The notes beneath the pieces were generated by a model. It saw only the letters and a program-made list of their open reading frames with translations. It did not search any database and was not told the origin of the DNA. Below are positions 21,976 through 38,072 of a DNA stretch of 64,000 nt, in pieces (the stretch's first letter is position 1; every line of letters starts with the position of its first letter). Source of the stretch: Myxococcales bacterium (GTDB lineage Bacteria > Myxococcota_A > Polyangia > Polyangiales > DASUME01); assembly GCA_047601445.1 (NCBI GenBank), contig JASGJH010000001.1, positions 5,792,001 to 5,856,000 on the forward strand, in the 5' to 3' direction. A program made the position numbers and the translations under genes.

Positions 21976-23493
21976 TCAGGCCTTCAAGAATGGGACGATC
22001 TTGCTGGCATCGGTGCGCAGTCGATCGGGCCACATCGTCTTGGGATCGCCGTAGGAGTTGTCCGTGAACTGGGAGCCGTAACCCTTGAGGCCGCCCGACT
22101 CGAATTCGCTCGCAGGCACGCCCATGGCTTGGAGCACGGTGGCGAGCCACTGGTTGTAGAGCAGGCCCGCGAACTGGTCGCGCCACTTGCGGTTGGAGTT
22201 CACCGCGCGGTAGTCGACGTAGTTGCCCGTCTTGAGGAAGCCGGCGGCGCCACCCGCGGTGACGAGGGGCAGACCCACCGGATCGTGGGTGCTCTCGCCG
22301 GACTCCTGGGTCCACATCATGAGGGTATTGTCGAGGTAGGTCTTGCCGTCGGCTTCTTCCACGTTGAGCTTGTTGGCCAGATCCAGGAACACGTTCTCGA
22401 AGATGTGCTGGTACGAGGCCACGAGCAGCGCTTGCTTGTCGGGGTTGGTGGCCTGGTGGGCCACGTCCTGATGCCAGTCGCCGTTGAAGGCGGTCCAGAG
22501 CTCCATCGTGTACATGGTGCAGATGCGCGAGGTGCCACACATGAAGGCCGCGGCGATCACGTCGTTGAACACGTCGTAGAACTGCGTGCTGCCCGCGACG
22601 TTGGTGGAGTTGTTGCCGAAGCCCGAGGAGTTCTTGTCCACGCTGGTGCCGGGCGCCTGCACGTTGCTGCAGGAGGCCACGACGTTCACGCGGCGCTCGA
22701 GCTCGGAGAGGCGCGCCATGTGGTCGTCCAGGCGCTGCTTGTCCGCGGCCGACAGCCGCTTGGCGTCACCGAAGGCGCCGTTGCGTAGCTGCTTGTAGTT
22801 GTCGAGCACGCGATCCACGACCGGCACGCGGGCGCTCGTGGTGGTGGTGGGCGGCACGAAGATGCTGTCGAACAGCTCCTTGGAGCTGAAGCTGGTGGGC
22901 ATCGACTGCACGCTGCCCGACTTGGTCTGCGGGTTGGAGTAGTTCCACGAGATGCCATCGGTGGCGATGTGCATCGAGCGCTGCTTGATGCTGCTCAGGT
23001 TGCTGTAGAAGGAGGGCGACCAGGCCATCACCTGGTCGATGGTGGGGACGTAGTTGATCGGCGGGTTCTGGTCGGAGCGCCCGAAGTTGCCCAGATGGCC
23101 GCCCGTGTGGTGCGCGATGTAGAAGGGCAGGTCGAAGCCGCGGATCACGTTGATGCGCGACAGCACGCTAGACGAGAGGTTGGCGGACGCCGCGTTCAGG
23201 ATGTTCGAGAGCGAAGCCTTGCCGCCGCTGCTGCTGGTGGCGAGGTTGCCGCGCCGCACGGTGTGGTCCGAGTAGAGCGCCTGGCTCTCGGTGAGCAGCG
23301 AATCACTCGGAAAGAAGTTGGCTCCGGTAACAGCGCCGTGGGGACTCGTGATGGCCACGAACCTGGGTAGGGCCACGAAGCTCTGGGCCTTCGCGCTGGA
23401 AGGCAGGAGCGATGGCAACCACGGTAGTGCGAGGGCGAAACCGCCCGCGCCGCGCAGGAACTGACGTCGGCTGTGATTGGTGATGACGCTCAT
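21976..23493 (-). CDS. Tat-exported DUF1552-type protein
   Basis: SRRQFLRGAGGFALALPWLPS Tat signal; TIDQVMA, DKQRLDDHM, AFMCGTSR, TYLDNTL motifs. Confidence 0.85.
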   Translation of the reverse strand: MSVITNHSRRQFLRGAGGFALALPWLPSLLPSSAKAQSFVALPRFVAITSPHGAVTGANFFPSDSLLTESQALYSDHTVRRGNLATSSSGGKASLSNILNAASANLSSSVLSRINVIRGFDLPFYIAHHTGGHLGNFGRSDQNPPINYVPTIDQVMAWSPSFYSNLSSIKQRSMHIATDGISWNYSNPQTKSGSVQSMPTSFSSKELFDSIFVPPTTTTSARVPVVDRVLDNYKQLRNGAFGDAKRLSAADKQRLDDHMARLSELERRVNVVASCSNVQAPGTSVDKNSSGFGNNSTNVAGSTQFYDVFNDVIAAAFMCGTSRICTMYTMELWTAFNGDWHQDVAHQATNPDKQALLVASYQHIFENVFLDLANKLNVEEADGKTYLDNTLMMWTQESGESTHDPVGLPLVTAGGAAGFLKTGNYVDYRAVNSNRKWRDQFAGLLYNQWLATVLQAMGVPASEFESGGLKGYGSQFTDNSYGDPKTMWPDRLRTDASKIVPFLKA

Positions 23494-23676
23494 AGGGGGA
23501 ACGACCCTATCAGCCGAGCCTGGTGGTCGATACCCAGCCCACCAAAAACAACCCTTCTGGGTACCTAAACGAGCGCCTGTGCCCCGCTTCGCACGCTTTC
23601 GAACAAACCCAACGAGTCTAGGGCGGTGACCTACGCCGGCGCCAACGTGCTTGAAGCAGCGCTCGCATGGTGGGCT

Positions 23677-25527
23677 TCACTCCGCTTCCGCGCTGCGGCT
23701 ACGGAAGCTCGGCAACAGCGCCAGGCTGCGCAGCGCGTCGCGCACGCTGTGGCCGCCGGCGAGCTGGGCGCGCACTGCCTCGAGTGAGCAGCCGTCACGC
23801 GACTCGTCCTCCGCGCGCGATCCCGCAAAGCGGACCACTTGGCGCGCAAAGCAGGCCCCGACCTTGCCGCTCTCCGCCAGCATGTGCGCCAGATCCGTGG
23901 CGCCTTTGGACGAGCGCGTGTCGTCGGCCCAGACACGTGGCGTGCTGGCGGTGTCGAGCGTCAGTTGGGAAAGCAAGGCGCCGTCGGCCGCGTACACCGT
24001 CTGTGTCGAGCGCAGTCGCCCGAGTGCGTCGTAGTTCTCCGTGGCGAAGCCGAGTGCGTTCAGCTGGGTGCCGTGACAGCCATTGCAGGTGGTGCCCGGC
24101 TTCTGCGTGAGCGCCTCCACGACCTGGCGTGTGGTTCCGTTCGCCGTGGGCTCGGGCGCGACCAGGGCTGCGTTCGGGTCGGGCGTTCCCAGCTTGTCGC
24201 ACAACAAACGCTCGCGCAGGAACACGCCCTTCATGATGGGCCGCGTGTTTCCGCTGGCCGAGGACAACAGAGCCGCGCGCGTGATCAAGCCGGCGCGCTG
24301 CCCGTCGGGAAATCGCGGTGGCTCGTCGAGGCCGTTCCAGGTGGGGACGCCATAGATGGACGCCAGCTCTGCGCCACGGGCGAAGGAGTAGGGACTGAGC
24401 AGCCAGCCCTCGAGCGTGTCGGACGCGGCGAGCCCGTGGTACGCGAATGAATCGGCCACCTCCGCCAGCATGTCTTCGCGCAGGGTGCCGCTCGGCAGGT
24501 TGGTGCCGGCGAACGCCTTGTAGCGCGGATCGTCGTGCAACACGTCGAGGGGCGTCAGGTAGTCCACGTTCAGCCACTCCCGGGCGAAGCTGCGCAGTCC
24601 CTGCTCGGCACGGGGGTCCCCGAGCATGCGATCGACGGTGGCCACGAAGCCGGTCTCGTCGTCGAGCTCGCCGCGCTCGGCCGCCAGCAGCAAGTCCTCG
24701 TCCGGGGTGCTCCGCCAAAGCTGAAACGAGAGGCGAGTCGCCAGCTCGTAGCGTGAGAGCGGCACGCTGGTTCCGGCGGGCGCTGGCGGGCCCACCTGCT
24801 GGACCTCGTAGAGGAACTGGGGCGAGTTCAGGAACACCACGATCAAGTCCGACAGCCCGTCTCGGTCCAGCACATCCGGCGACGCATAGACCTCGTGGAA
24901 GAACGCGGTCTCCTCGGCGCCGAGCGGATGGCGCAGCACCAGCCGGCCAAAGCGCGCGATGAAGCGGTCGATGCATGCATGGGGATCGCTGCAATCGCCG
25001 AGCAGCTGGTCCATGCGGGCGTCGTCGGCGCTGACCGCGGCGCCGATCTCGAGGCTCGCGTTGTAGTAGCCCTGCACGTGGGCATCGGACATCGCCTGAT
25101 CCATGCGCGCAAAAGGGGCGAACTTGGAGACCGAGTCCGTCGGTAGTGCACCGAGCGCGCTGCGTACCGCGGGGATCGCGAGGACCTCGTCCGCCAGGGC
25201 GCCGCCCGAGGTGCCCTCGAGGGCGAGATGCAGCGAGCTCACGTACTCGGCGCGCGAGAGTCGTCGCAAGGGTAGGTTGGCGCTCGGGCTGTCGGCATCG
25301 CAGCGAAACTCGAGTGCCGTCGCATGAGCCTGGAGATCGCCGGGTGTCTCGCCGGGTTCCACCTCGCCCTCATTCCAGGGACGATCATCGGTCTCGGAGA
25401 TGGGGCCTGCCGGTGCGAGCCGAGAATCGGCGCACGACGCACTGAGCAGGAGCGCCGCCGCGGCGCTGAGTGGCGAGAGCAAACATGGAAGGGAGCAGGA
25501 CAACCGTACGGGAGAGCGTGCGGGCAT
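23677..25527 (-). CDS. DUF1587/1595/1592/1588/1585-type lipoprotein
   Basis: PLRRLSRAEY, SPQFLY, YELATRLSFQLWRSTPD, RAGLIT, CNGCH, LGFATENYDALGR; lipobox-like LSASC; start uncertain. Confidence 0.85.
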   Translation of the reverse strand: MPARSPVRLSCSLPCLLSPLSAAAALLLSASCADSRLAPAGPISETDDRPWNEGEVEPGETPGDLQAHATALEFRCDADSPSANLPLRRLSRAEYVSSLHLALEGTSGGALADEVLAIPAVRSALGALPTDSVSKFAPFARMDQAMSDAHVQGYYNASLEIGAAVSADDARMDQLLGDCSDPHACIDRFIARFGRLVLRHPLGAEETAFFHEVYASPDVLDRDGLSDLIVVFLNSPQFLYEVQQVGPPAPAGTSVPLSRYELATRLSFQLWRSTPDEDLLLAAERGELDDETGFVATVDRMLGDPRAEQGLRSFAREWLNVDYLTPLDVLHDDPRYKAFAGTNLPSGTLREDMLAEVADSFAYHGLAASDTLEGWLLSPYSFARGAELASIYGVPTWNGLDEPPRFPDGQRAGLITRAALLSSASGNTRPIMKGVFLRERLLCDKLGTPDPNAALVAPEPTANGTTRQVVEALTQKPGTTCNGCHGTQLNALGFATENYDALGRLRSTQTVYAADGALLSQLTLDTASTPRVWADDTRSSKGATDLAHMLAESGKVGACFARQVVRFAGSRAEDESRDGCSLEAVRAQLAGGHSVRDALRSLALLPSFRSRSAEAE

Positions 25528-25886
25528 CGGTGCTAAGGGTCGGCGCGCCGGTGCCCCGCGCGCCAACAAATTGATGACGCCCAGCAAACTTGCGGGTTTC
25601 ATGCGCGGTGGCGTGAGCGACGGGCTCACGTTCGAAGACTGGGGCCTCGCGCCGGTCGGAAGGGCACAAGGACTTGTCCTCTCGGAGGCGAGCGAGCCAG
25701 ATGGTGGGGCACCGGCACCTCGCGGAGTGCACCGCGATCGTGGTGCCCACACCTACATTCACCTCAAGGTCCTCCGCGTTCTCTGCGGGAAGCGAGTCGA
25801 CCCCAGAATCAGTTCACTCCTTAGGCGTCAGTGGCCTGGTTGTGTAACGCTACGGCCCGCGACCCCACACCACGCGAGGATCGACA

Positions 25887-29438: not shown

Positions 29439-29471
29439 GGCTTTCTTCGATTGTCTATGCTGCGGCCCACC

Positions 29472-29933
29472 ATGCGCCACGAGCTGTCGTTGAGACTGGC
29501 ATCTTCCGCGAAACTTCGCACCGGTTTGCGCGCGCTCGCAGTGTCGATGGCGGTTCTCGCCGCGGCCGGCTGCGCGCCCAAGCTGGGCGACGGCTGCAAG
29601 CGCACCCAGGAGTGCTCGGTCAACGGGGATCGCACGTGCGACCAATCCCAACCCGGCGGCTACTGCACCATTCCCAATTGCTCTGGCGGTAGCTGTCCCG
29701 ACGACGGCGTGTGCGTCCGCTTCCAGCCCGACGAGCCACGCCTGTCACAGTCGTGGTGCATGGCTTCCTGCGACAACACCCGTGACTGCGATCGCGATCG
29801 CTACGTGTGCCGCACCGCCGCGCAGCTGAACCAACAGAGCACGGAGGACGTCACCGGCCAGACCCCCAAGGTGGCCGACGTCCTCGACGACAACGAGAGC
29901 CGCAAGTTCTGCGTCGTGGACAGCAAGGACTAG
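29472..29933 (+). CDS. Small Cys-rich lipoprotein
   Basis: Lipobox AAGC; PGGYCT..C...C pattern common in myxobacteria. Confidence 0.8.
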   Translation: MRHELSLRLASSAKLRTGLRALAVSMAVLAAAGCAPKLGDGCKRTQECSVNGDRTCDQSQPGGYCTIPNCSGGSCPDDGVCVRFQPDEPRLSQSWCMASCDNTRDCDRDRYVCRTAAQLNQQSTEDVTGQTPKVADVLDDNESRKFCVVDSKD

Positions 29934-29937
29934 TGGT

Positions 29938-30879
29938 TTGGGAGCGGGGCTCGCGCGCTATCTCGCGTTCCGGGGAGTTCGCGCTCTACTCACAGCTCTC
30001 GCAGTCGTGAGCCTGGCCTTCCTCTTGATCCGCGCGGTACCGGGCGATCCCGTGGACGCCATCCTGGGGGATCAGGCATCGCCAGAAGATCGCGCCGAAG
30101 TGAGGCGTCAGCTGGCCCTCGATCGCCCGCTGTTCGCGCAATACGCGGGCTTTCTGGGTGACGTGGTGAACGGCAGCCTCGGTCGCTCCTTCCGGGCGCC
30201 CGATCGCTCGGTGCGCGAGTTGATCGCGGAGAGCTTTCCGCCCACCCTCGAGCTGGCCGTCAGCGCGCTCGCGGTAGCCTGGTTGATCGCGATTCCATTG
30301 GGGGTGGTGGCGGCCGCGCGCCGTGACACCCAGGTCGACCGGGCAGCCTCCGTGTTCGCGCTGACCGGGCTCGCGCTGCCCACGATCTGGCTCGGGCCTC
30401 TGCTAGTGCTGTTTTTCTCGGTGAAACTGCGCTGGCTACCTTTGCCAGGAGATGACCGCGAGGGCCTGCTCGCGCTGGTGCTTCCGTCGCTCACCGTGGG
30501 CACGGCGCTGGCGGCGGCACTCACCCGCCAGACCCGGGCCGCCATGATCGAAGTGCTCTCCCAGCCCTACGTGGCCGCGGCGCGTGCACGTGGCGTGGCC
30601 GACTGGCAGGTGTTCTTCAAGCACGCCCTGCGCAACGCGTTGATGCCGGTGCTGACGGTGGCGGCGAGCCAGCTCGGTGCCCTCCTGTCGGGGGCGGTGA
30701 TCGCCGAGAAGGTGTTCGAACGGCCCGGCCTGGGTAGCCTGTTCCTGGAGGCGTTCTTCGCGCGCGACATTCCTGTGGTGCAGGGCGTGGTGCTGGTGGT
30801 GGGCCTGATCTACGTGCTCGTGAACGTGCTGCTCGACGTGACCTATGCCTGGATCGATCCGCGCGTGAGGCTCTCATGA
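29938..30879 (+). CDS. Peptide/nickel ABC permease (DppB/OppB-like)
   Basis: PGDPVDAILG, SLGRSF, YVAAARARG...KHALRNAL, RDIPVVQG. Confidence 0.92.
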   Translation: MGAGLARYLAFRGVRALLTALAVVSLAFLLIRAVPGDPVDAILGDQASPEDRAEVRRQLALDRPLFAQYAGFLGDVVNGSLGRSFRAPDRSVRELIAESFPPTLELAVSALAVAWLIAIPLGVVAAARRDTQVDRAASVFALTGLALPTIWLGPLLVLFFSVKLRWLPLPGDDREGLLALVLPSLTVGTALAAALTRQTRAAMIEVLSQPYVAAARARGVADWQVFFKHALRNALMPVLTVAASQLGALLSGAVIAEKVFERPGLGSLFLEAFFARDIPVVQGVVLVVGLIYVLVNVLLDVTYAWIDPRVRLS

Positions 30880-31688
30880 AGCGCCTGCTGGCGGCGCCTT
30901 CGGTCTGGCTGTGTGGGGCGTTCTTGTTGGTCGCGGTGTTCGGCCCCTGGGTGGTCTCCACCTCGCCTTTTCAGATCGATCTCGCCCATGCCTACGAGTC
31001 GCCTAGCGCCGCGCACTGGCTCGGCACTGCCGACAACGGGGTGGATTTATTGAGCGCCCTGGTCCACGGCGCGCGCCTCGCCGGCATCATCTCCGCCAGC
31101 GTGGTCGGGGTGTGCCTGCTGGTGGGGGGCCTGTTGGGCGCTCTCTCGGGCTTGGTGGGAGGCTGGTTCGAGCACGCACTGATGGCGCTCTCGGACCTGC
31201 TGCAAGCTTTCCCGGCCGTGCTCCTCAACATTGCCCTGCTGGCATTGGTGTCTCGGCCGGGCGTCGAGCACGTGGTGCTCTCCCTGTGCATGAACGGTTG
31301 GGTGCTCTATGCGCGCCTGGCTCGGGCGGAGGTGCTTGCGCTGCGGGATCGGGAGTTCGTGCATGCCGCGCGCGCCCTGGGGGTGCCGGAGTCGCAGGTC
31401 CTCCTTCGTCATCTCGTGCCGAACTTGATAGGGCCCTTGGTGGTCCAGGCCACAGCTGGCTTCGGAAGCGCCATTCTCATGGAGTCGACGCTGTCCTTTT
31501 TGGGGCTCGGACCGGCCCGTTCGGTGTCCTGGGGGGCCCTGCTGGATCAAGGAAGCGCCGTGCTCCTGCGCTTTCCCCACGTGGCGCTGGTCTCGGGCGG
31601 CGCGATGGCGGCGGTGGTCCTGTGCTTCAACCTGGCCGGGGATGCCCTCCGAGACGCGCTCGATCCACGTCTGAGGGGGCGCGCGTGA
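30876..31688 (+). CDS. Peptide/nickel ABC permease (DppC/OppC-like)
   Basis: HWLGTADNGVD, EFVHAARALG, ESTLSFLGLG, GDALRDALDP. Confidence 0.92.
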   Translation: MKRLLAAPSVWLCGAFLLVAVFGPWVVSTSPFQIDLAHAYESPSAAHWLGTADNGVDLLSALVHGARLAGIISASVVGVCLLVGGLLGALSGLVGGWFEHALMALSDLLQAFPAVLLNIALLALVSRPGVEHVVLSLCMNGWVLYARLARAEVLALRDREFVHAARALGVPESQVLLRHLVPNLIGPLVVQATAGFGSAILMESTLSFLGLGPARSVSWGALLDQGSAVLLRFPHVALVSGGAMAAVVLCFNLAGDALRDALDPRLRGRA

Positions 31689-31750: not shown

Positions 31751-32941
31751 ATGTTCCGCTGGCTAGTGGCCGGCGGCTTGGGGTTGTTGGCGGCTTGCGT
31801 AGAGCCCGCGCGTTCGGCGGACGTCGCCCCGGCGAGCAAGGGCGGTCCCAGCGCGGCCGAGAGCGCCACGCTCACCAATACCGCGAGCCAAGAAGAGCAA
31901 GCGGGTCCAGCTGAGCCCACGGCAACGCCTGCAGAGGCAGCGGCTGCGAGTCCGTCGGGGCAGGATGCCCCAGCCCCCAACAGCGCGGCGGGAGATCATT
32001 TCTTCGGCGAGCCCGATGCACCGATCCGCGACGCGCTCGCGCACAAGAACATCGTCAGCGTGGAAAAGGGCCGCGGCGGGCGCAGCCTGGGCTTCAAGAT
32101 CGTCCTCGAGGGCGGGCACAAGGGCTACTTCAAGGGCGAGCAAGTCTTCTCGGCGGCCAACTGGTTCGGCGAACTCGCCGCCTATCACCTGGATCGCATG
32201 CTCGGGCTAAACCGCGTGCCCGCCATGGTGAGCCGACAGTTCGCCTGGTCCCAGCTGGAGCCCGCGGCCGGCGCCGATTGGCGCAAGCCCGAGATGATCA
32301 TCCGCAACGGTCAGGTGCGTGGCGCCTTCGTCTCGTGGGTCACCGGCGGGGTGCGGCCGCTGGTGCAGCAAGAGGGCTGGGAACGCTGGATGCGGGTCAA
32401 ATACTGGCCCACCTCCCTGGTGAGTCCGTTTCAGCGGCCCGCCGTGTGGGCGGCCGAGCTCGCCCAGGTGCGGCGCCTGGGCGAGGAGTGGCGCAGCAAG
32501 GAAGAGCGCGCGCGCATGCGCGGCCTGCGGCCCGAGCCGGATCGTCCCGATCGTCCCTCCGAGCTCAGCGACCTCATCGTGTTCGACTACTTGATCCGCA
32601 ACCTCGATCGCTGGGGTGGCGGCAACGCCAACGTGTTGATCCGCGGCGAGCACGGTCCGCTGATCTTCCTCGACAACGCTGCGGGCTTCGAGCCTGGTGA
32701 GCCGCGCCCGAGCTTGATGGAGGCGCGCCTGCACGCCCTACAGCGCTTCCGTCGCAGCACCATCGCCGCGGTGAAGGCCTTCGATCTCAAGAAGTACGAG
32801 GCGCGCCTGGCCACCGAGCCGCTGCAGCCGGTGCTCACTGCGGCACAGCTCGAGGCGCTCGAGATCCGCCGCAAGGCCTTGCTGAGCTGGGTCGCCGAGC
32901 AAGAGCGCACTTACGGCGAAGCCATTTGGGCCTGGGAGTAG
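31751..32941 (+). CDS. Lipoprotein with Fam20C/Four-jointed-like atypical kinase domain
   Basis: Lipobox LAAC; GYFKG, ELAAYHLDRMLGLNRVP, SDLIVFDYLIRNLDRW, LIFLDNAAGF. Confidence 0.75.
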   Translation: MFRWLVAGGLGLLAACVEPARSADVAPASKGGPSAAESATLTNTASQEEQAGPAEPTATPAEAAAASPSGQDAPAPNSAAGDHFFGEPDAPIRDALAHKNIVSVEKGRGGRSLGFKIVLEGGHKGYFKGEQVFSAANWFGELAAYHLDRMLGLNRVPAMVSRQFAWSQLEPAAGADWRKPEMIIRNGQVRGAFVSWVTGGVRPLVQQEGWERWMRVKYWPTSLVSPFQRPAVWAAELAQVRRLGEEWRSKEERARMRGLRPEPDRPDRPSELSDLIVFDYLIRNLDRWGGGNANVLIRGEHGPLIFLDNAAGFEPGEPRPSLMEARLHALQRFRRSTIAAVKAFDLKKYEARLATEPLQPVLTAAQLEALEIRRKALLSWVAEQERTYGEAIWAWE

Positions 32942-32981: not shown

Positions 32982-33989
32982 TCACTCCGAGGCCAAGGAA
33001 TAGGCCATCGGCAGGACCACGAACTTGGCCATGACTGGTCGATGGTCCGAGAGCTGAGCGCCGTTCGGGTCCACGAAGGTCGCGCCCTCGACCAGGTAGT
33101 CCACCAGCATGAGCTCCACGCTGGAGCTGCTGCGGAACAACACCTTGTCGATGCGCTCGCAGCCGTCGTCGTTCGGGTCGCCCGAATCGCAGGCCGAGGC
33201 GAGCGCATTCGCCGCGGGCAGGACCCCGTTGTGCACGAAGTCCACCCAGCTGTCGGTCAGACCCGTCTCCGCCAGTAACTTCTCCATCTCGTCGCCGGGG
33301 TCGCGGTAGCGCTCGTTGAAATCGCCCGCCACCAGCACCGCCACGTCGGCCGAGTACTTGCGGATGGTCTGAGAAAGCTGGGCGAAGTTCTTGGCGCGGG
33401 CCTGCTCGTCGCCGCTCGCGTGACCTGCATCCATGTGTACGTCGTACACGTCGAGCACCAGACCTTGCCCAAGCTCCATGCGCGCACGCGTGAAGCCCTT
33501 GGGCGTGAGGCAGTCGCTGCCGCTATCGAAGGTGCCGTTGCAGGCGGTCCAGCTCAGGCGGTCGAAGGTGTGGAACGGAATGCGCGACAGCGTGTTGAGT
33601 CCGTCGCCCAGGGAGTGGGCCTTCTCGTTCGGACTCGACTGATAGGGATGATCCACCAGGCTCACGAGGTCCGCGTGATAGGAGAAATCCTCCTGCACCG
33701 TCACCACGTCGTATGGATTGAGCAACGGGCTGATCAGCGACGTGTTGCGCTTGGGGTTGCTGCCCGAGATGCCCTCCGGCAGGCCCGCCACGTTGTAGGT
33801 CAAGATCGAGAGATAGGCCGGGTCAGCGGCCAAGGACCACTCGAGGTCCGACTCCGAGCCCGCATCCATCGGGCGTTCGTGCGACGCACTGGTGTTCGTC
33901 GACTTCTGATCGTCGAAAAGACCGAGACCACAAGCAGGCAAGAGACTCAGCCCACAAAGCAACGTACCCGTGCTCCTGACGCGCGCCAT
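32982..33989 (-). CDS. Endonuclease/exonuclease/phosphatase (sphingomyelinase-like) lipoprotein
   Basis: LTYNVAGL, VQEDF, HMDAG, AGDFN, IDKVLF, SDH; lipobox LPAC. Confidence 0.85.
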   Translation of the reverse strand: MARVRSTGTLLCGLSLLPACGLGLFDDQKSTNTSASHERPMDAGSESDLEWSLAADPAYLSILTYNVAGLPEGISGSNPKRNTSLISPLLNPYDVVTVQEDFSYHADLVSLVDHPYQSSPNEKAHSLGDGLNTLSRIPFHTFDRLSWTACNGTFDSGSDCLTPKGFTRARMELGQGLVLDVYDVHMDAGHASGDEQARAKNFAQLSQTIRKYSADVAVLVAGDFNERYRDPGDEMEKLLAETGLTDSWVDFVHNGVLPAANALASACDSGDPNDDGCERIDKVLFRSSSSVELMLVDYLVEGATFVDPNGAQLSDHRPVMAKFVVLPMAYSLASE

Positions 33990-34147
33990 GTTTCCCCACC
34001 TCGCGAGCACCGAGGAGATGTCGCCGTGCGCATGCACGGGCGAACCTGGCGCTCTTTTGTGGCTACCACGCGCTGGAATGGGCCGTCGAACGTGCGTATC
34101 TCGGGCGATCTAAGCGGTTTCGTGCGCTTCCGCGAGCGCACGTCGCG

Positions 34148-36001: not shown

Positions 36002-36146
36002 GGCAGGCGAGCATACGGGCGACCTCCGTTAATCGCACCCATGAACGCCGGCTTGGCCTCAAGTTCCCCATGGGGCACAAATCCCCCGCCTGCGCGCCCG
36101 TGTTTTGCTGGCGATGGTGGGTGGAGCGCGCTACCTCGCAGACGTC

Positions 36147-37208
36147 ATGAACTCGCCGTCGCGCACGCCCAAACAGAGCGGTTTCCGCCAGCCCGGAGAA
36201 TGGACCCCCCACCGTGCGTGTTGGGTCGCGTTTCCCTCGGACCCCGAGCTATGGCCGGATCTCGCGGGTGTGCAGGCTTCCTTTGCCACCATGTGCCGCG
36301 GCATCGCGCGCCCGTCGGCCAAGCCCGATGTCAGCGGCCCCCAGAGCGAGGCGCTCGAGCTCCTGGTGCGCGATGCCGCCGCCGAGGCCCGCGCGCGAGA
36401 GCTGCTCTCGGATCTCGAGGTGCGCTACCACCGCATGTCCTACGGAGACATCTGGATGCGCGACATCGCCCCCGTCTTCCTCACCGATGCGAGCGGTGAG
36501 GTGGCCAGCGTGCGCTTTCGCTTCAATGGGTGGGGCGAGAAGTACGACTACCCCGGCGATACCGAGGTCGCCGCGCGCGTGCAGGATCAGCTGCAATACG
36601 CGGCTTTCCAGAGCTCCCTGGTGCTCGAGGGCGGCGGTGTCGAGAGCGATGGCGCAGGTCTGTGCATGACCACGCGCGACGTGGCGCTCAACCCGAATCG
36701 CAACCCCGGCCGCAGCGAAGCCGAAGTGGAGGCAGAGCTCAAGGAGGCGCTGGGCGCCGAGCGCGTGATCTGGCTCGATCAGGGCCTCTTGAACGATCAC
36801 ACCGATGGCCACATCGACAACATCGCGCGCTTCATCGCGCCTGGCCGCGTGGTGTGCATGCGTGCGCAAACGGCCGATGATCCCAATGTGGACGTGCTCG
36901 CGAGCATCGAGGGCGATCTGCGCAAGCAGGGCCTGGAGGTGGTCACACTACCCTCCCCCGGGCTGGTGCTCGGCCGCGAACAACGGCCGCTGCCCGCCAG
37001 CTACCTCAACTTCTACATCGCCAATCACAGCGTCGTGGTGCCCGTGTTTGGTTCGCCCCACGACGAAGCCGCGCTCACCGCGCTCGCAGCGCTATTTCCC
37101 AACCGCACGGTGGTGCCGGTGCCCGCCAAGGTCTTCCTCGAGGAAGGCGGCACGGTACACTGTATTACGCAGCAAGAGCCGCAGCGCTCCAGCGAGAGAA
37201 CCATCTGA
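36147..37208 (+). CDS. aguA: Agmatine deiminase
   Basis: DIWMRD, FNGWG, LEGGG, DHTDGHIDN, ASYLNF, GGTVHCITQQ. Confidence 0.92.
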   Translation: MNSPSRTPKQSGFRQPGEWTPHRACWVAFPSDPELWPDLAGVQASFATMCRGIARPSAKPDVSGPQSEALELLVRDAAAEARARELLSDLEVRYHRMSYGDIWMRDIAPVFLTDASGEVASVRFRFNGWGEKYDYPGDTEVAARVQDQLQYAAFQSSLVLEGGGVESDGAGLCMTTRDVALNPNRNPGRSEAEVEAELKEALGAERVIWLDQGLLNDHTDGHIDNIARFIAPGRVVCMRAQTADDPNVDVLASIEGDLRKQGLEVVTLPSPGLVLGREQRPLPASYLNFYIANHSVVVPVFGSPHDEAALTALAALFPNRTVVPVPAKVFLEEGGTVHCITQQEPQRSSERTI

Positions 37209-37217
37209 GGTACAGTC

Positions 37218-38072
37218 ATGGCCCGTTCCACTCTGCGCGTCGCCGCTCTCCAGTGCGCCCTACCCGGACCCTACGAGCAGAATCTCGCCGCCATCGAACG
37301 CTTGGTGCGCGAAGCCAAGAAGCGTGGTGCCCAGGTGGTGCTGCCGCCCGAGTTGTTCGCGGGTGAGTACTTCTGTCGCACCGAGGAGCCGCGTTTCTTC
37401 GAGTGGGCCGAGCCCTTCGAGACGAGCCGCACGGTGGCGCGCTTTCGCGAGATCGCGCGGGAGCTCGGCGTGTCCCTGCCCATCTCCTTCTTCGAGCGCG
37501 ACGGTCAGCAGTACTACAACTCGATCGCGGTGCTCGATCCCGAGGGCAACGTGCTCGGGCGCTATCGCAAGAGCCACATCCCGGATGGCCCGGGATACGA
37601 GGAGAAGTTCTACTTCCGTCCCGGTGCCGATGGCTTCAAGGTCTGGTCCACGCCCCACGCGCGACTCGGCGTGGGCATCTGTTGGGACCAGTGGTTCCCC
37701 GAGTGTGCACGCGCCATGGCGCTGCTCGATGCCGAGGTCTTGCTCTATCCCACGGCCATCGGTAGCGAACCCGAGGAACCCGACTTCGACAGCAAGGACG
37801 CCTGGCAGCGCGCCATGATCGGCCACGCCGTGTGCAACGTGATGCCGGTGATCGCGGCCAACCGCATCGGCAACGAGAACGGCCAGACGTTCTACGGCAG
37901 CTCCTTCATCTGTGACCACCGAGGCAACAAGCTCGCCGAGCTCGGGCGCAGCGAGGAAGGCGTGATCACCGCCGACCTGGACCTCGACAAGATCCGCGAG
38001 GACCGCGCCTCCATGGGCTTCTTCCGCGATCGCCGCCCCGAGCTCTACGGCTCCCTCAGCGAACGGCGCTGA
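37218..38072 (+). CDS. aguB: N-carbamoylputrescine amidase
   Basis: PELF, YRKSHIPDGPGYEEKFYF, ICWDQWFPE, YPTAIGSEP. Confidence 0.95.
   Translation: MARSTLRVAALQCALPGPYEQNLAAIERLVREAKKRGAQVVLPPELFAGEYFCRTEEPRFFEWAEPFETSRTVARFREIARELGVSLPISFFERDGQQYYNSIAVLDPEGNVLGRYRKSHIPDGPGYEEKFYFRPGADGFKVWSTPHARLGVGICWDQWFPECARAMALLDAEVLLYPTAIGSEPEEPDFDSKDAWQRAMIGHAVCNVMPVIAANRIGNENGQTFYGSSFICDHRGNKLAELGRSEEGVITADLDLDKIREDRASMGFFRDRRPELYGSLSERR

Follow-up and report, generated by a model that had tools for sequence, protein, structure and literature searches.

A predicted Fam20-like lipoprotein kinase in a myxobacterial genome

One gene in the window, the whole 64,000-nucleotide stretch of myxobacterial DNA that was analysed, raises the question of whether a bacterium can carry an extracytoplasmic kinase of a type known from the animal Golgi, and where such an enzyme would find its ATP and its substrate. 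The first-pass annotation had seen in it a lipobox, a flexible linker and the motifs GRGGRS, YFKG, ELAAYHLDRMLGLNRVP, FDYLIRNLDRW and FLDNAAGF, all of which are present in the 396-aa open reading frame, and had proposed an intact kinase parallel to Fam20C and Four-jointed. In excerpts of a review and a structure paper, the Fam20 family is traced through animals only (PMC7948968, PMC5865150; these two and PMC3222651, PMC3416761, PMC5038940, PMC5381601, PMC7432876 and PMC12189002 are cited from excerpts), and the word 'bacteria' is absent from the excerpts of PMC5865150. A kinome survey comparing Legionella, human and amoeba places FAM20 among eukaryote- or metazoan-specific clusters (PMC9758233), Fam20 appears in PMC12599244 just in a reference, and the literature searched, which leaves out most subscription papers, yielded none that treats a Fam20 family of bacteria. 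In databases, these bacterial proteins already carry a Fam20C label through automatic Pfam annotation. The host genome is a single 9.5-Mb contig of 66% GC, and the gene and its parts lie in the window as follows.

31751..32941, + strand: Fam20-like kinase gene, 396 aa, predicted lipoprotein (open reading frame, Pfam and structure match)
31751..31798, + strand: signal peptide and lipobox LAAC, residues 13-16 (pattern-based call)
31796..31822, + strand: motif C-V-E-P-A-R-S-A-D at the start of the mature protein, conserved among homologs
31823..31996, + strand: low-complexity Ala/Pro/Ser/Glu tether, which varies among homologs
31997..32938, + strand: kinase domain of Fam20 fold (AF2 model, Foldseek, fold Z score)

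The frame is free of internal stops across 31751-32941 (+), and GAGAGG sits 2 nt upstream of the start codon; translation might equally well begin 15 nt further upstream, at an in-frame ATG (31736) that would prepend MGREA. A 609-aa version with a GTG start at 31112 overlaps dppC in another frame and was rejected as the gene. A promoter scan gave no signal above chance. Cys16 of LAAC is the sole cysteine of the protein and its predicted lipidation site, the Ala/Pro/Ser/Glu-rich linker spans residues 17-82 (66 residues), ELAAYHLDRMLGLNRVP spans residues 141-157, and FDYLIRNLDRW and FLDNAAGF occupy residues 278-288 and 306-313, respectively.

Sequence and fold comparisons indicate that the window kinase is almost certainly a genuine homolog of the Fam20 clade. 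Pfam Fam20C (PF06702) scored 31.6 bits against a curated cut-off of 26.8; HipA_2 reached 21.9 bits against a cut-off of 27, FAM198 likewise fell under its own, Pfam CotH gave no match at E<=1, and no NCBIfam family reached its cut-off. A phmmer search of the PDB with E<=10 returned nothing but Fam20 proteins, six sequences with the best at 2.3e-7 (Fam20B/hydra Fam20). Against human Fam20C, a 70-sequence profile gave an E of 7.6e-22, and a profile of a divergent set (34 members at 20-50% identity) gave 2.7e-30 in a single stretch across the domain, with PI4KII the next kinase class at only E 0.011. Pfam Fam20C matched 22 of these 34 members at E<=0.01, and Pfam FAM198 matched 10 of them weakly. 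The Fam20C motifs that the first-pass annotation had named are visible in Fam20 alignments, and the parallel it drew from them is borne out by the Pfam score, the divergent profile and the top fold match.

The AlphaFold model of the kinase domain (pLDDT 94.8) had Fam20C as its first Foldseek match (E 2.3e-13), with PI4KII at 2.3e-5, and was compared with 48,161 chains by VIA-align. Structural comparison had been set as a check on the kinase assignment, and it placed the predicted model first with hydra Fam20 (Z 25.2, rmsd 2.7, 268 residues aligned), then with zebrafish Fam20C (Z 24.8, rmsd 2.7 over 270) and worm Fam20 (Z 23.9), a kinase-like result with PI4KII (Z 15.7), CtkA (15.4), HipA (11.7) and CotH (10.9) below the Fam20s. 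For a distant bacterial subfamily, the modelled fold likewise matched Fam20 best, yet with Z 18.6 (rmsd 3.7, 265 aligned), which makes the subfamily of the window kinase the more Fam20-like of the two. In the ESM Atlas, three clusters of 258, 152 and 60 members were all bacterial, with Myxococcota commonest, and the only eukaryotic cluster shown was FJX1, a weak embedding match (score 0.90, rank 18, 157 shared features); viral folds gave weak PI3/4K-like matches only, the best at 4.8e-5. By domain and fold, the bacterial protein is a member of the Fam20/Four-jointed clade and not of Fam20A/B/C, because it is without the disulfides, the sugar-pocket or dimer loops and the second acidic ATP-site residue.

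The kinase domain is very probably extracytoplasmic, judging from N-terminal sequences, and the strongest argument is that three export devices (lipobox, signal peptide and membrane helix) occur in one family. The export signal claimed from the lipobox of this protein has counterparts family-wide. Among 77 loci outside the window with a called kinase gene, 65 were evaluable (4 ran off a contig end and 8 were unparsed), and all 65 had a lipobox (26) or a hydrophobic segment (39) ahead of the kinase domain; the test is crude and pattern-based, scoring a lipobox or hydrophobic segment before the domain, and control sets scored 2/55, 6/43 and 33/52. The 121 close database proteins (the best 120 of 543 matches, plus the query) comprised 82 with a lipobox, 16 with a hydrophobic segment, 5 starting at Cys and 18 with no signal, and among 28 distant rows an export signal was found in 19 by script and in 3 more by eye, leaving 6 unresolved. 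Several long distant forms have one membrane helix preceded by basic residues, which would place the kinase domain on the outer side, in the manner of Golgi type II proteins.

In Myxococcus xanthus, Lys at +2 directs a lipoprotein to the inner membrane and Ala at +7 to the matrix (PMC3222651). The window kinase carries Val at +2 and Ser at +7 and, with neither signal present, would probably be anchored in the outer membrane by default, by rules extrapolated from another class. The pattern C-x-E-x-A-R-S-A-D occurs in 72 of the 121 close homologs, and conservation drops past +10. After the lipid Cys and its C-[VI]-E-x-A-R-S-A-D motif, the remaining tether is unalignable among homologs. The motif is possibly a sorting signal or an autophosphorylation site, for which its Ser22 would be the candidate residue. 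Some family members that are not lipoproteins retain S-x-D.

The elements of the active site were located as follows, with conservation counted in the 121 close homologs.

32069..32086, + strand: Gly-rich loop GRGGRS, residues 107-112, aligned with GGTQ of Fam20C
32132..32134, + strand: Lys128 (in YFKG), predicted ATP-binding lysine, opposite the FKP lysine of Fam20C; 119/121
32171..32173, + strand: Glu141, canonical alpha-C glutamate; 119/121
32606..32632, + strand: catalytic loop D286-R-W-G-G-G-N-A-N294; D286, R287, W288 and N294 in 121/121
32672..32689, + strand: metal-binding D308-N309-A-A-G-F, DFG equivalent; D308, N309, A311 and F313 in 121/121

D286 aligns with the catalytic Asp of hydra Fam20 (PMC5865150). 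In the divergent set (n=34), every member has E141 and R287, and at least 90% have each of K128, D286, D308 and N309. This pattern of residues makes it likely that the kinase is an active phosphotransferase.

The reading that we prefer, at a probability of roughly 0.42, is that of an envelope-anchored, metal-ATP-dependent kinase phosphorylating Ser/Thr of exported envelope proteins. Following export, the protein would be lipidated at Cys16, as the lipobox and the family-wide export signals suggest, and the 66-residue tether would give the kinase domain reach to its substrates from an anchor probably in the outer membrane. By alignment to Fam20 structures, K128-E141 and D308/N294 would bind metal-ATP and D286 would act as the base, and the ATP might come from the small amount present in the periplasm or from prey or kin that have lysed, with no dedicated transporter. 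Because both loops that form the Fam20B sugar pocket are absent, the substrate may be protein rather than sugar, and given activity we hold a protein substrate to be slightly better than an even bet. Against this reading, the acidic residue that pairs with the lysine in Fam20 appears to have no acidic counterpart in the family, the phosphate-contacting lysine that follows GGTQL in Fam20 is replaced by Gly114, and no neighbouring gene that might encode a substrate is conserved. Two further observations count against it, namely that basal animal Fam20s (sponge, hydra) are sugar kinases (PMC5865150) and that the next relatives beyond Fam20 are lipid kinases, the PI4-kinases.

These last two observations speak for an exported glycan or small-molecule kinase resembling Fam20B, whose target would be a hydroxyl group of a sugar in an envelope glycan, a glycoprotein or a lipid head group. 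The hydra xylosylkinase is the top fold match, tied with Fam20C, and the aromatic residue two places past the catalytic Asp (W288; W, F or Y in divergent members) could stack on a sugar. Since the sugar contacts of Fam20B are replaced or deleted and no conserved polysaccharide cluster lies beside the kinase, we regard this alternative, the best placed of the rivals, as unlikely.

A more improbable alternative is a nucleotide binder that is not a kinase, such as an ATPase, an AMP-transferase or a pseudokinase, whose role would be to sense or scavenge ATP outside the cell. The ATP-binding lysine of Fam20 pairs with an acidic residue, Glu213 in worm and Asp152 in hydra (PMC5865150); the pseudokinase Fam20A has Gln at this position, a change that contributes to its pseudokinase state (PMC5865150, PMC7948968). 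In our alignments A136/N137 occupy this place, with no conserved acid across the bacterial family. The intact kinase of the first-pass annotation is a prediction: its core catalytic residues are kept, and the acid needed by Fam20 kinases appears to be without a counterpart. Presumably the family relies on the canonical alpha-C Glu141 instead, and this residue could stand in for the missing acid; D286, N294, D308-N309, K128 and E141 are essentially invariant, which argues for a kinase. Degenerate family members do exist: L113:2289-5906 and L121:3542-6793 encode long single-helix membrane forms with the motifs NWER/RHNG and NWNR/ENG, respectively, and are likely pseudokinase paralogs. Each adjoins a GATase1-like gene.

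ATP supply is the weak step of the envelope-kinase reading. Bacteria are thought to keep little ATP outside the cytoplasm, a scarcity that also favours a non-kinase. Periplasmic ATP in E. coli is reported at ~24 uM, its export route being called unknown (PMC7432876), and ATP has been described as not naturally periplasmic, an exported kinase working there once ATP was supplied (PMC5038940). A gene for an ATP/ADP translocase-like protein (NTT), a class uncharacterised in free-living bacteria (PMC5381601), was considered as a dedicated ATP supply and rejected as not required at the genome level. NTT genes occur in 50 of 86 kinase-positive and 85 of 215 kinase-negative genomes, and one family has the kinase in 26/26 genomes and NTT in just 5/26. 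Of 81 loci, 6 that are scattered over the tree have an NTT-like gene near the kinase, and the 36 metagenome loci counted (L176-L211; L132-L175 are outside the count) have none; in the host genome the NTT gene is unlinked to the kinase. The host genome also encodes two CotH and two lamin-tail/PPDK_N (ATP-grasp) proteins with N-termini that look lipobox-like by eye (C1:5196568, 1904153, 3688013 and 3182338; L212-L215), the two true CotH proteins scoring 139 and 85 bits with Pfam CotH, and exported ATP-site enzymes are a candidate pattern in this genome.

Relatives of the window kinase come from Polyangiales, Sandaracinaceae and other Myxococcota bins, a few being labelled just uncultured or Proteobacteria, in keeping with the myxobacterial origin first proposed; the homolog searches behind the family listed bacterial matches only. 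Within the order, 93 of 201 genomes (92/200 without one unpublished genome, G362), from 14 of its 19 families, have a close ortholog, and 86 of these 93 carriers have a single copy. At the level of the phylum, 86 of 301 genomes contain wider relatives, with 6-7 copies in some, and most of the other families searched gave none. Pfam Fam20C was positive in 0 of 14 control genomes, and plasmid and phage searches gave no match to the kinase. Comparison with two relatives by gap-free codon counting gave dN/dS of 0.135 and 0.16. The kinase follows a housekeeping pattern, being mostly single-copy, in a conserved chromosomal block and without a mobile-element match. A weak search for longer, fused proteins found none; beside the kinase domain, long family forms from the genomes contain disordered stretches and a single membrane helix, with TPRs as the only further domain in any of them. 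A second, divergent Fam20-like gene with a signal peptide lies in the same genome (C1:3405694-3406755; L001:7692-8693, - strand). It has a VGTSS Gly loop and a DHN metal motif and adjoins a cytochrome c assembly gene and a HATPase-domain gene, a neighbourhood fixed in its subfamily.

This distribution bears on a third alternative, a HipA/CtkA-like toxin or an effector in predation that reaches the cytoplasm of another cell through vesicles or membrane exchange and finds plentiful ATP there, which would solve the supply problem. Myxococcus is known to have lipoprotein toxins, the fold is related to those of CtkA and HipA (Z 15.4 and 11.7), and the 6-7 copies in some genomes would fit. A mostly single-copy, strongly conserved gene at a fixed chromosomal position, with no conserved small antitoxin or immunity gene beside it, does not look like such a toxin; a membrane helix anchors many of the relatives, and PADLOC gave no credible match (best E 0.017-0.044). 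We consider this reading highly improbable.

Two groups of neighbouring genes in the window give the local context of the kinase.

29451..31688, + strand: Cys-rich lipoprotein gene and dppB-like and dppC-like ABC permease genes, directly upstream with a 63-nt gap
36105..38072, + strand: agmatine-deiminase-family and CN-hydrolase genes, here 3.2 kb past the kinase gene, at other loci mostly immediately behind it

The upstream genes are possibly co-transcribed with the kinase, and 11-12 of 81 loci have permease genes beside it. The dppB/dppC-like pair has neither a binding-protein gene nor an ATPase gene next to it, and the Cys-rich lipoprotein has no Pfam match and is single in the genome. Downstream of the kinase, agmatine deiminase is found in 58 of 81 loci and CN-hydrolase in 55, often with gaps of a few nucleotides, and thiE and Fic genes are also part of the block, each at 44 loci. 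This linkage looks like inherited gene order, because thiE and Fic share the block, half of the loci belong to one clade (41 of 78 orthologs in a quick tree of bacterial sequences only) and distant family members are unlinked, the deiminase lying on a different contig in 3/3 tested genomes that have a deiminase match and distant kinases only. The least probable alternative, a partner of agmatine-to-putrescine metabolism such as an enzyme phosphorylating an amino-alcohol or polyamine conjugate, draws on the close gaps and on several deep branches with the deiminase, and is opposed by the unrelated genes travelling in the block, the single-clade bias, the unlinked distant members and a deiminase without an export signal.

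Across the neighbourhoods of close and distant loci, the kinase has no conserved neighbour that could encode a candidate substrate. A general partner phosphatase was rejected, candidates occurring at few loci: 2 of 20 distant loci have purple-acid-phosphatase genes nearby (family members upstream of distant kinases at L114:3-1685 and L131:456-2369), and 4 of 81 loci a NAGPA-family gene. A PPDK_N lipoprotein gene lies near the kinase in 6 of 81 loci, all of one Sandaracinaceae clade, near or directly adjoining it (L057:3600-5672 and five related loci). In the window, a lipoprotein-like endonuclease/exonuclease/phosphatase gene (32982-34037, - strand) is convergent with the kinase and is not conserved beside orthologs. 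A myxobacterial-type gene pair encoding a Tat-like RRQFL protein and a lipoprotein-like protein lies at 21976-25752 (- strand), and this type is also near the kinase in 10-12 other loci.

A conserved, selected bacterial branch with predicted export changes the Fam20 origin story, and makes it directly testable whether Gram-negative bacteria phosphorylate in the envelope with ATP, and by what route that ATP arrives. The small enzyme, cysteine-free in its kinase domain, is also offered for work on structure and mechanism. Its importance is tempered by the CotH precedent, the existing automatic Pfam labels and the substrate question. A broader and doubtful conjecture is that myxobacteria run extracytoplasmic ATP-dependent phosphorylation through lipoproteins of the Fam20, CotH and ATP-grasp types that draw on exported or scavenged ATP, and that the Polyangiales subfamily, whose modelled fold is nearer to animal Fam20 (Z 25) than that of its bacterial cousins (Z 18.6), is a living sister of the stock that gave rise to the animal Fam20 and Four-jointed kinases.

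Compared with known kinases, the window kinase shares with Fam20C (PDB 5yh3, 5yh0, 4kqa/4kqb), the Golgi casein kinase characterised by Mn-preferring phosphorylation of S-x-E/pS motifs, the whole-domain fold, the Gly loop, the FKP lysine, the E-x-A-A-x-x-L-D-R helix, the D-R catalytic loop and D-N-x-x-x-F, and both would be exported with an N-terminal anchor, predicted here from a lipobox in place of the Golgi signal. It differs in its identity of 19-23%, in a kinase domain without cysteines, in having Asn and not Glu in the loop past the catalytic Asp, and in lacking the D-F-F-Y-F-S-D and C-x-Y-Y-C loops (dimer, specificity), which are insertions relative to the bacterial profile. The four disulfides conserved in Fam20B/C (PMC5865150) are all absent, Cys16 being the lone cysteine. 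Fam20B and hydra Fam20 xylosylkinase (PDB 5xom, 5xoo) provide the best single-sequence and fold match, with the catalytic Asp aligned. Of the Gal-Xyl pocket of Fam20B (Thr114, Gln115, Tyr148, Tyr214, His301 and Lys321; PMC5865150), His301 is replaced by W288, Lys321 by A311 and Thr114/Gln115 by R111/S112 (mapped via the GGTQ motif of human and worm Fam20), and the loops bearing Tyr148 and Tyr214 are missing. No solved Four-jointed structure was among the structure-search matches; the likeness to Four-jointed motifs is a suggestion of the first-pass annotation, beside which stands the weak FJX1 embedding match. Four-jointed/FJX1 kinases are marked by sequence motifs of their own and by cadherin substrates. 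Four-jointed/FJX1 and FAM198 are secretory kinases of the same group (PMC3416761, PMC7948968). CotH (PF08757; PDB 5jda), which is bacterial, acts outside the cytoplasm proper and is Fam20C-related (PMC12189002), is an existing bacterial precedent that is far more distant from the window kinase, with a modelled fold match of Z 10.9, rmsd 4.0 over 211 and 9% identity. The PI4KII, CtkA, HipA and actin-fragmin kinase group belongs to the same atypical-kinase branch (Z 11.7-15.7) and shares the D-R...N catalytic loop, but lies ~10 Z units under Fam20 and consists of kinases that are cytoplasmic or injected.
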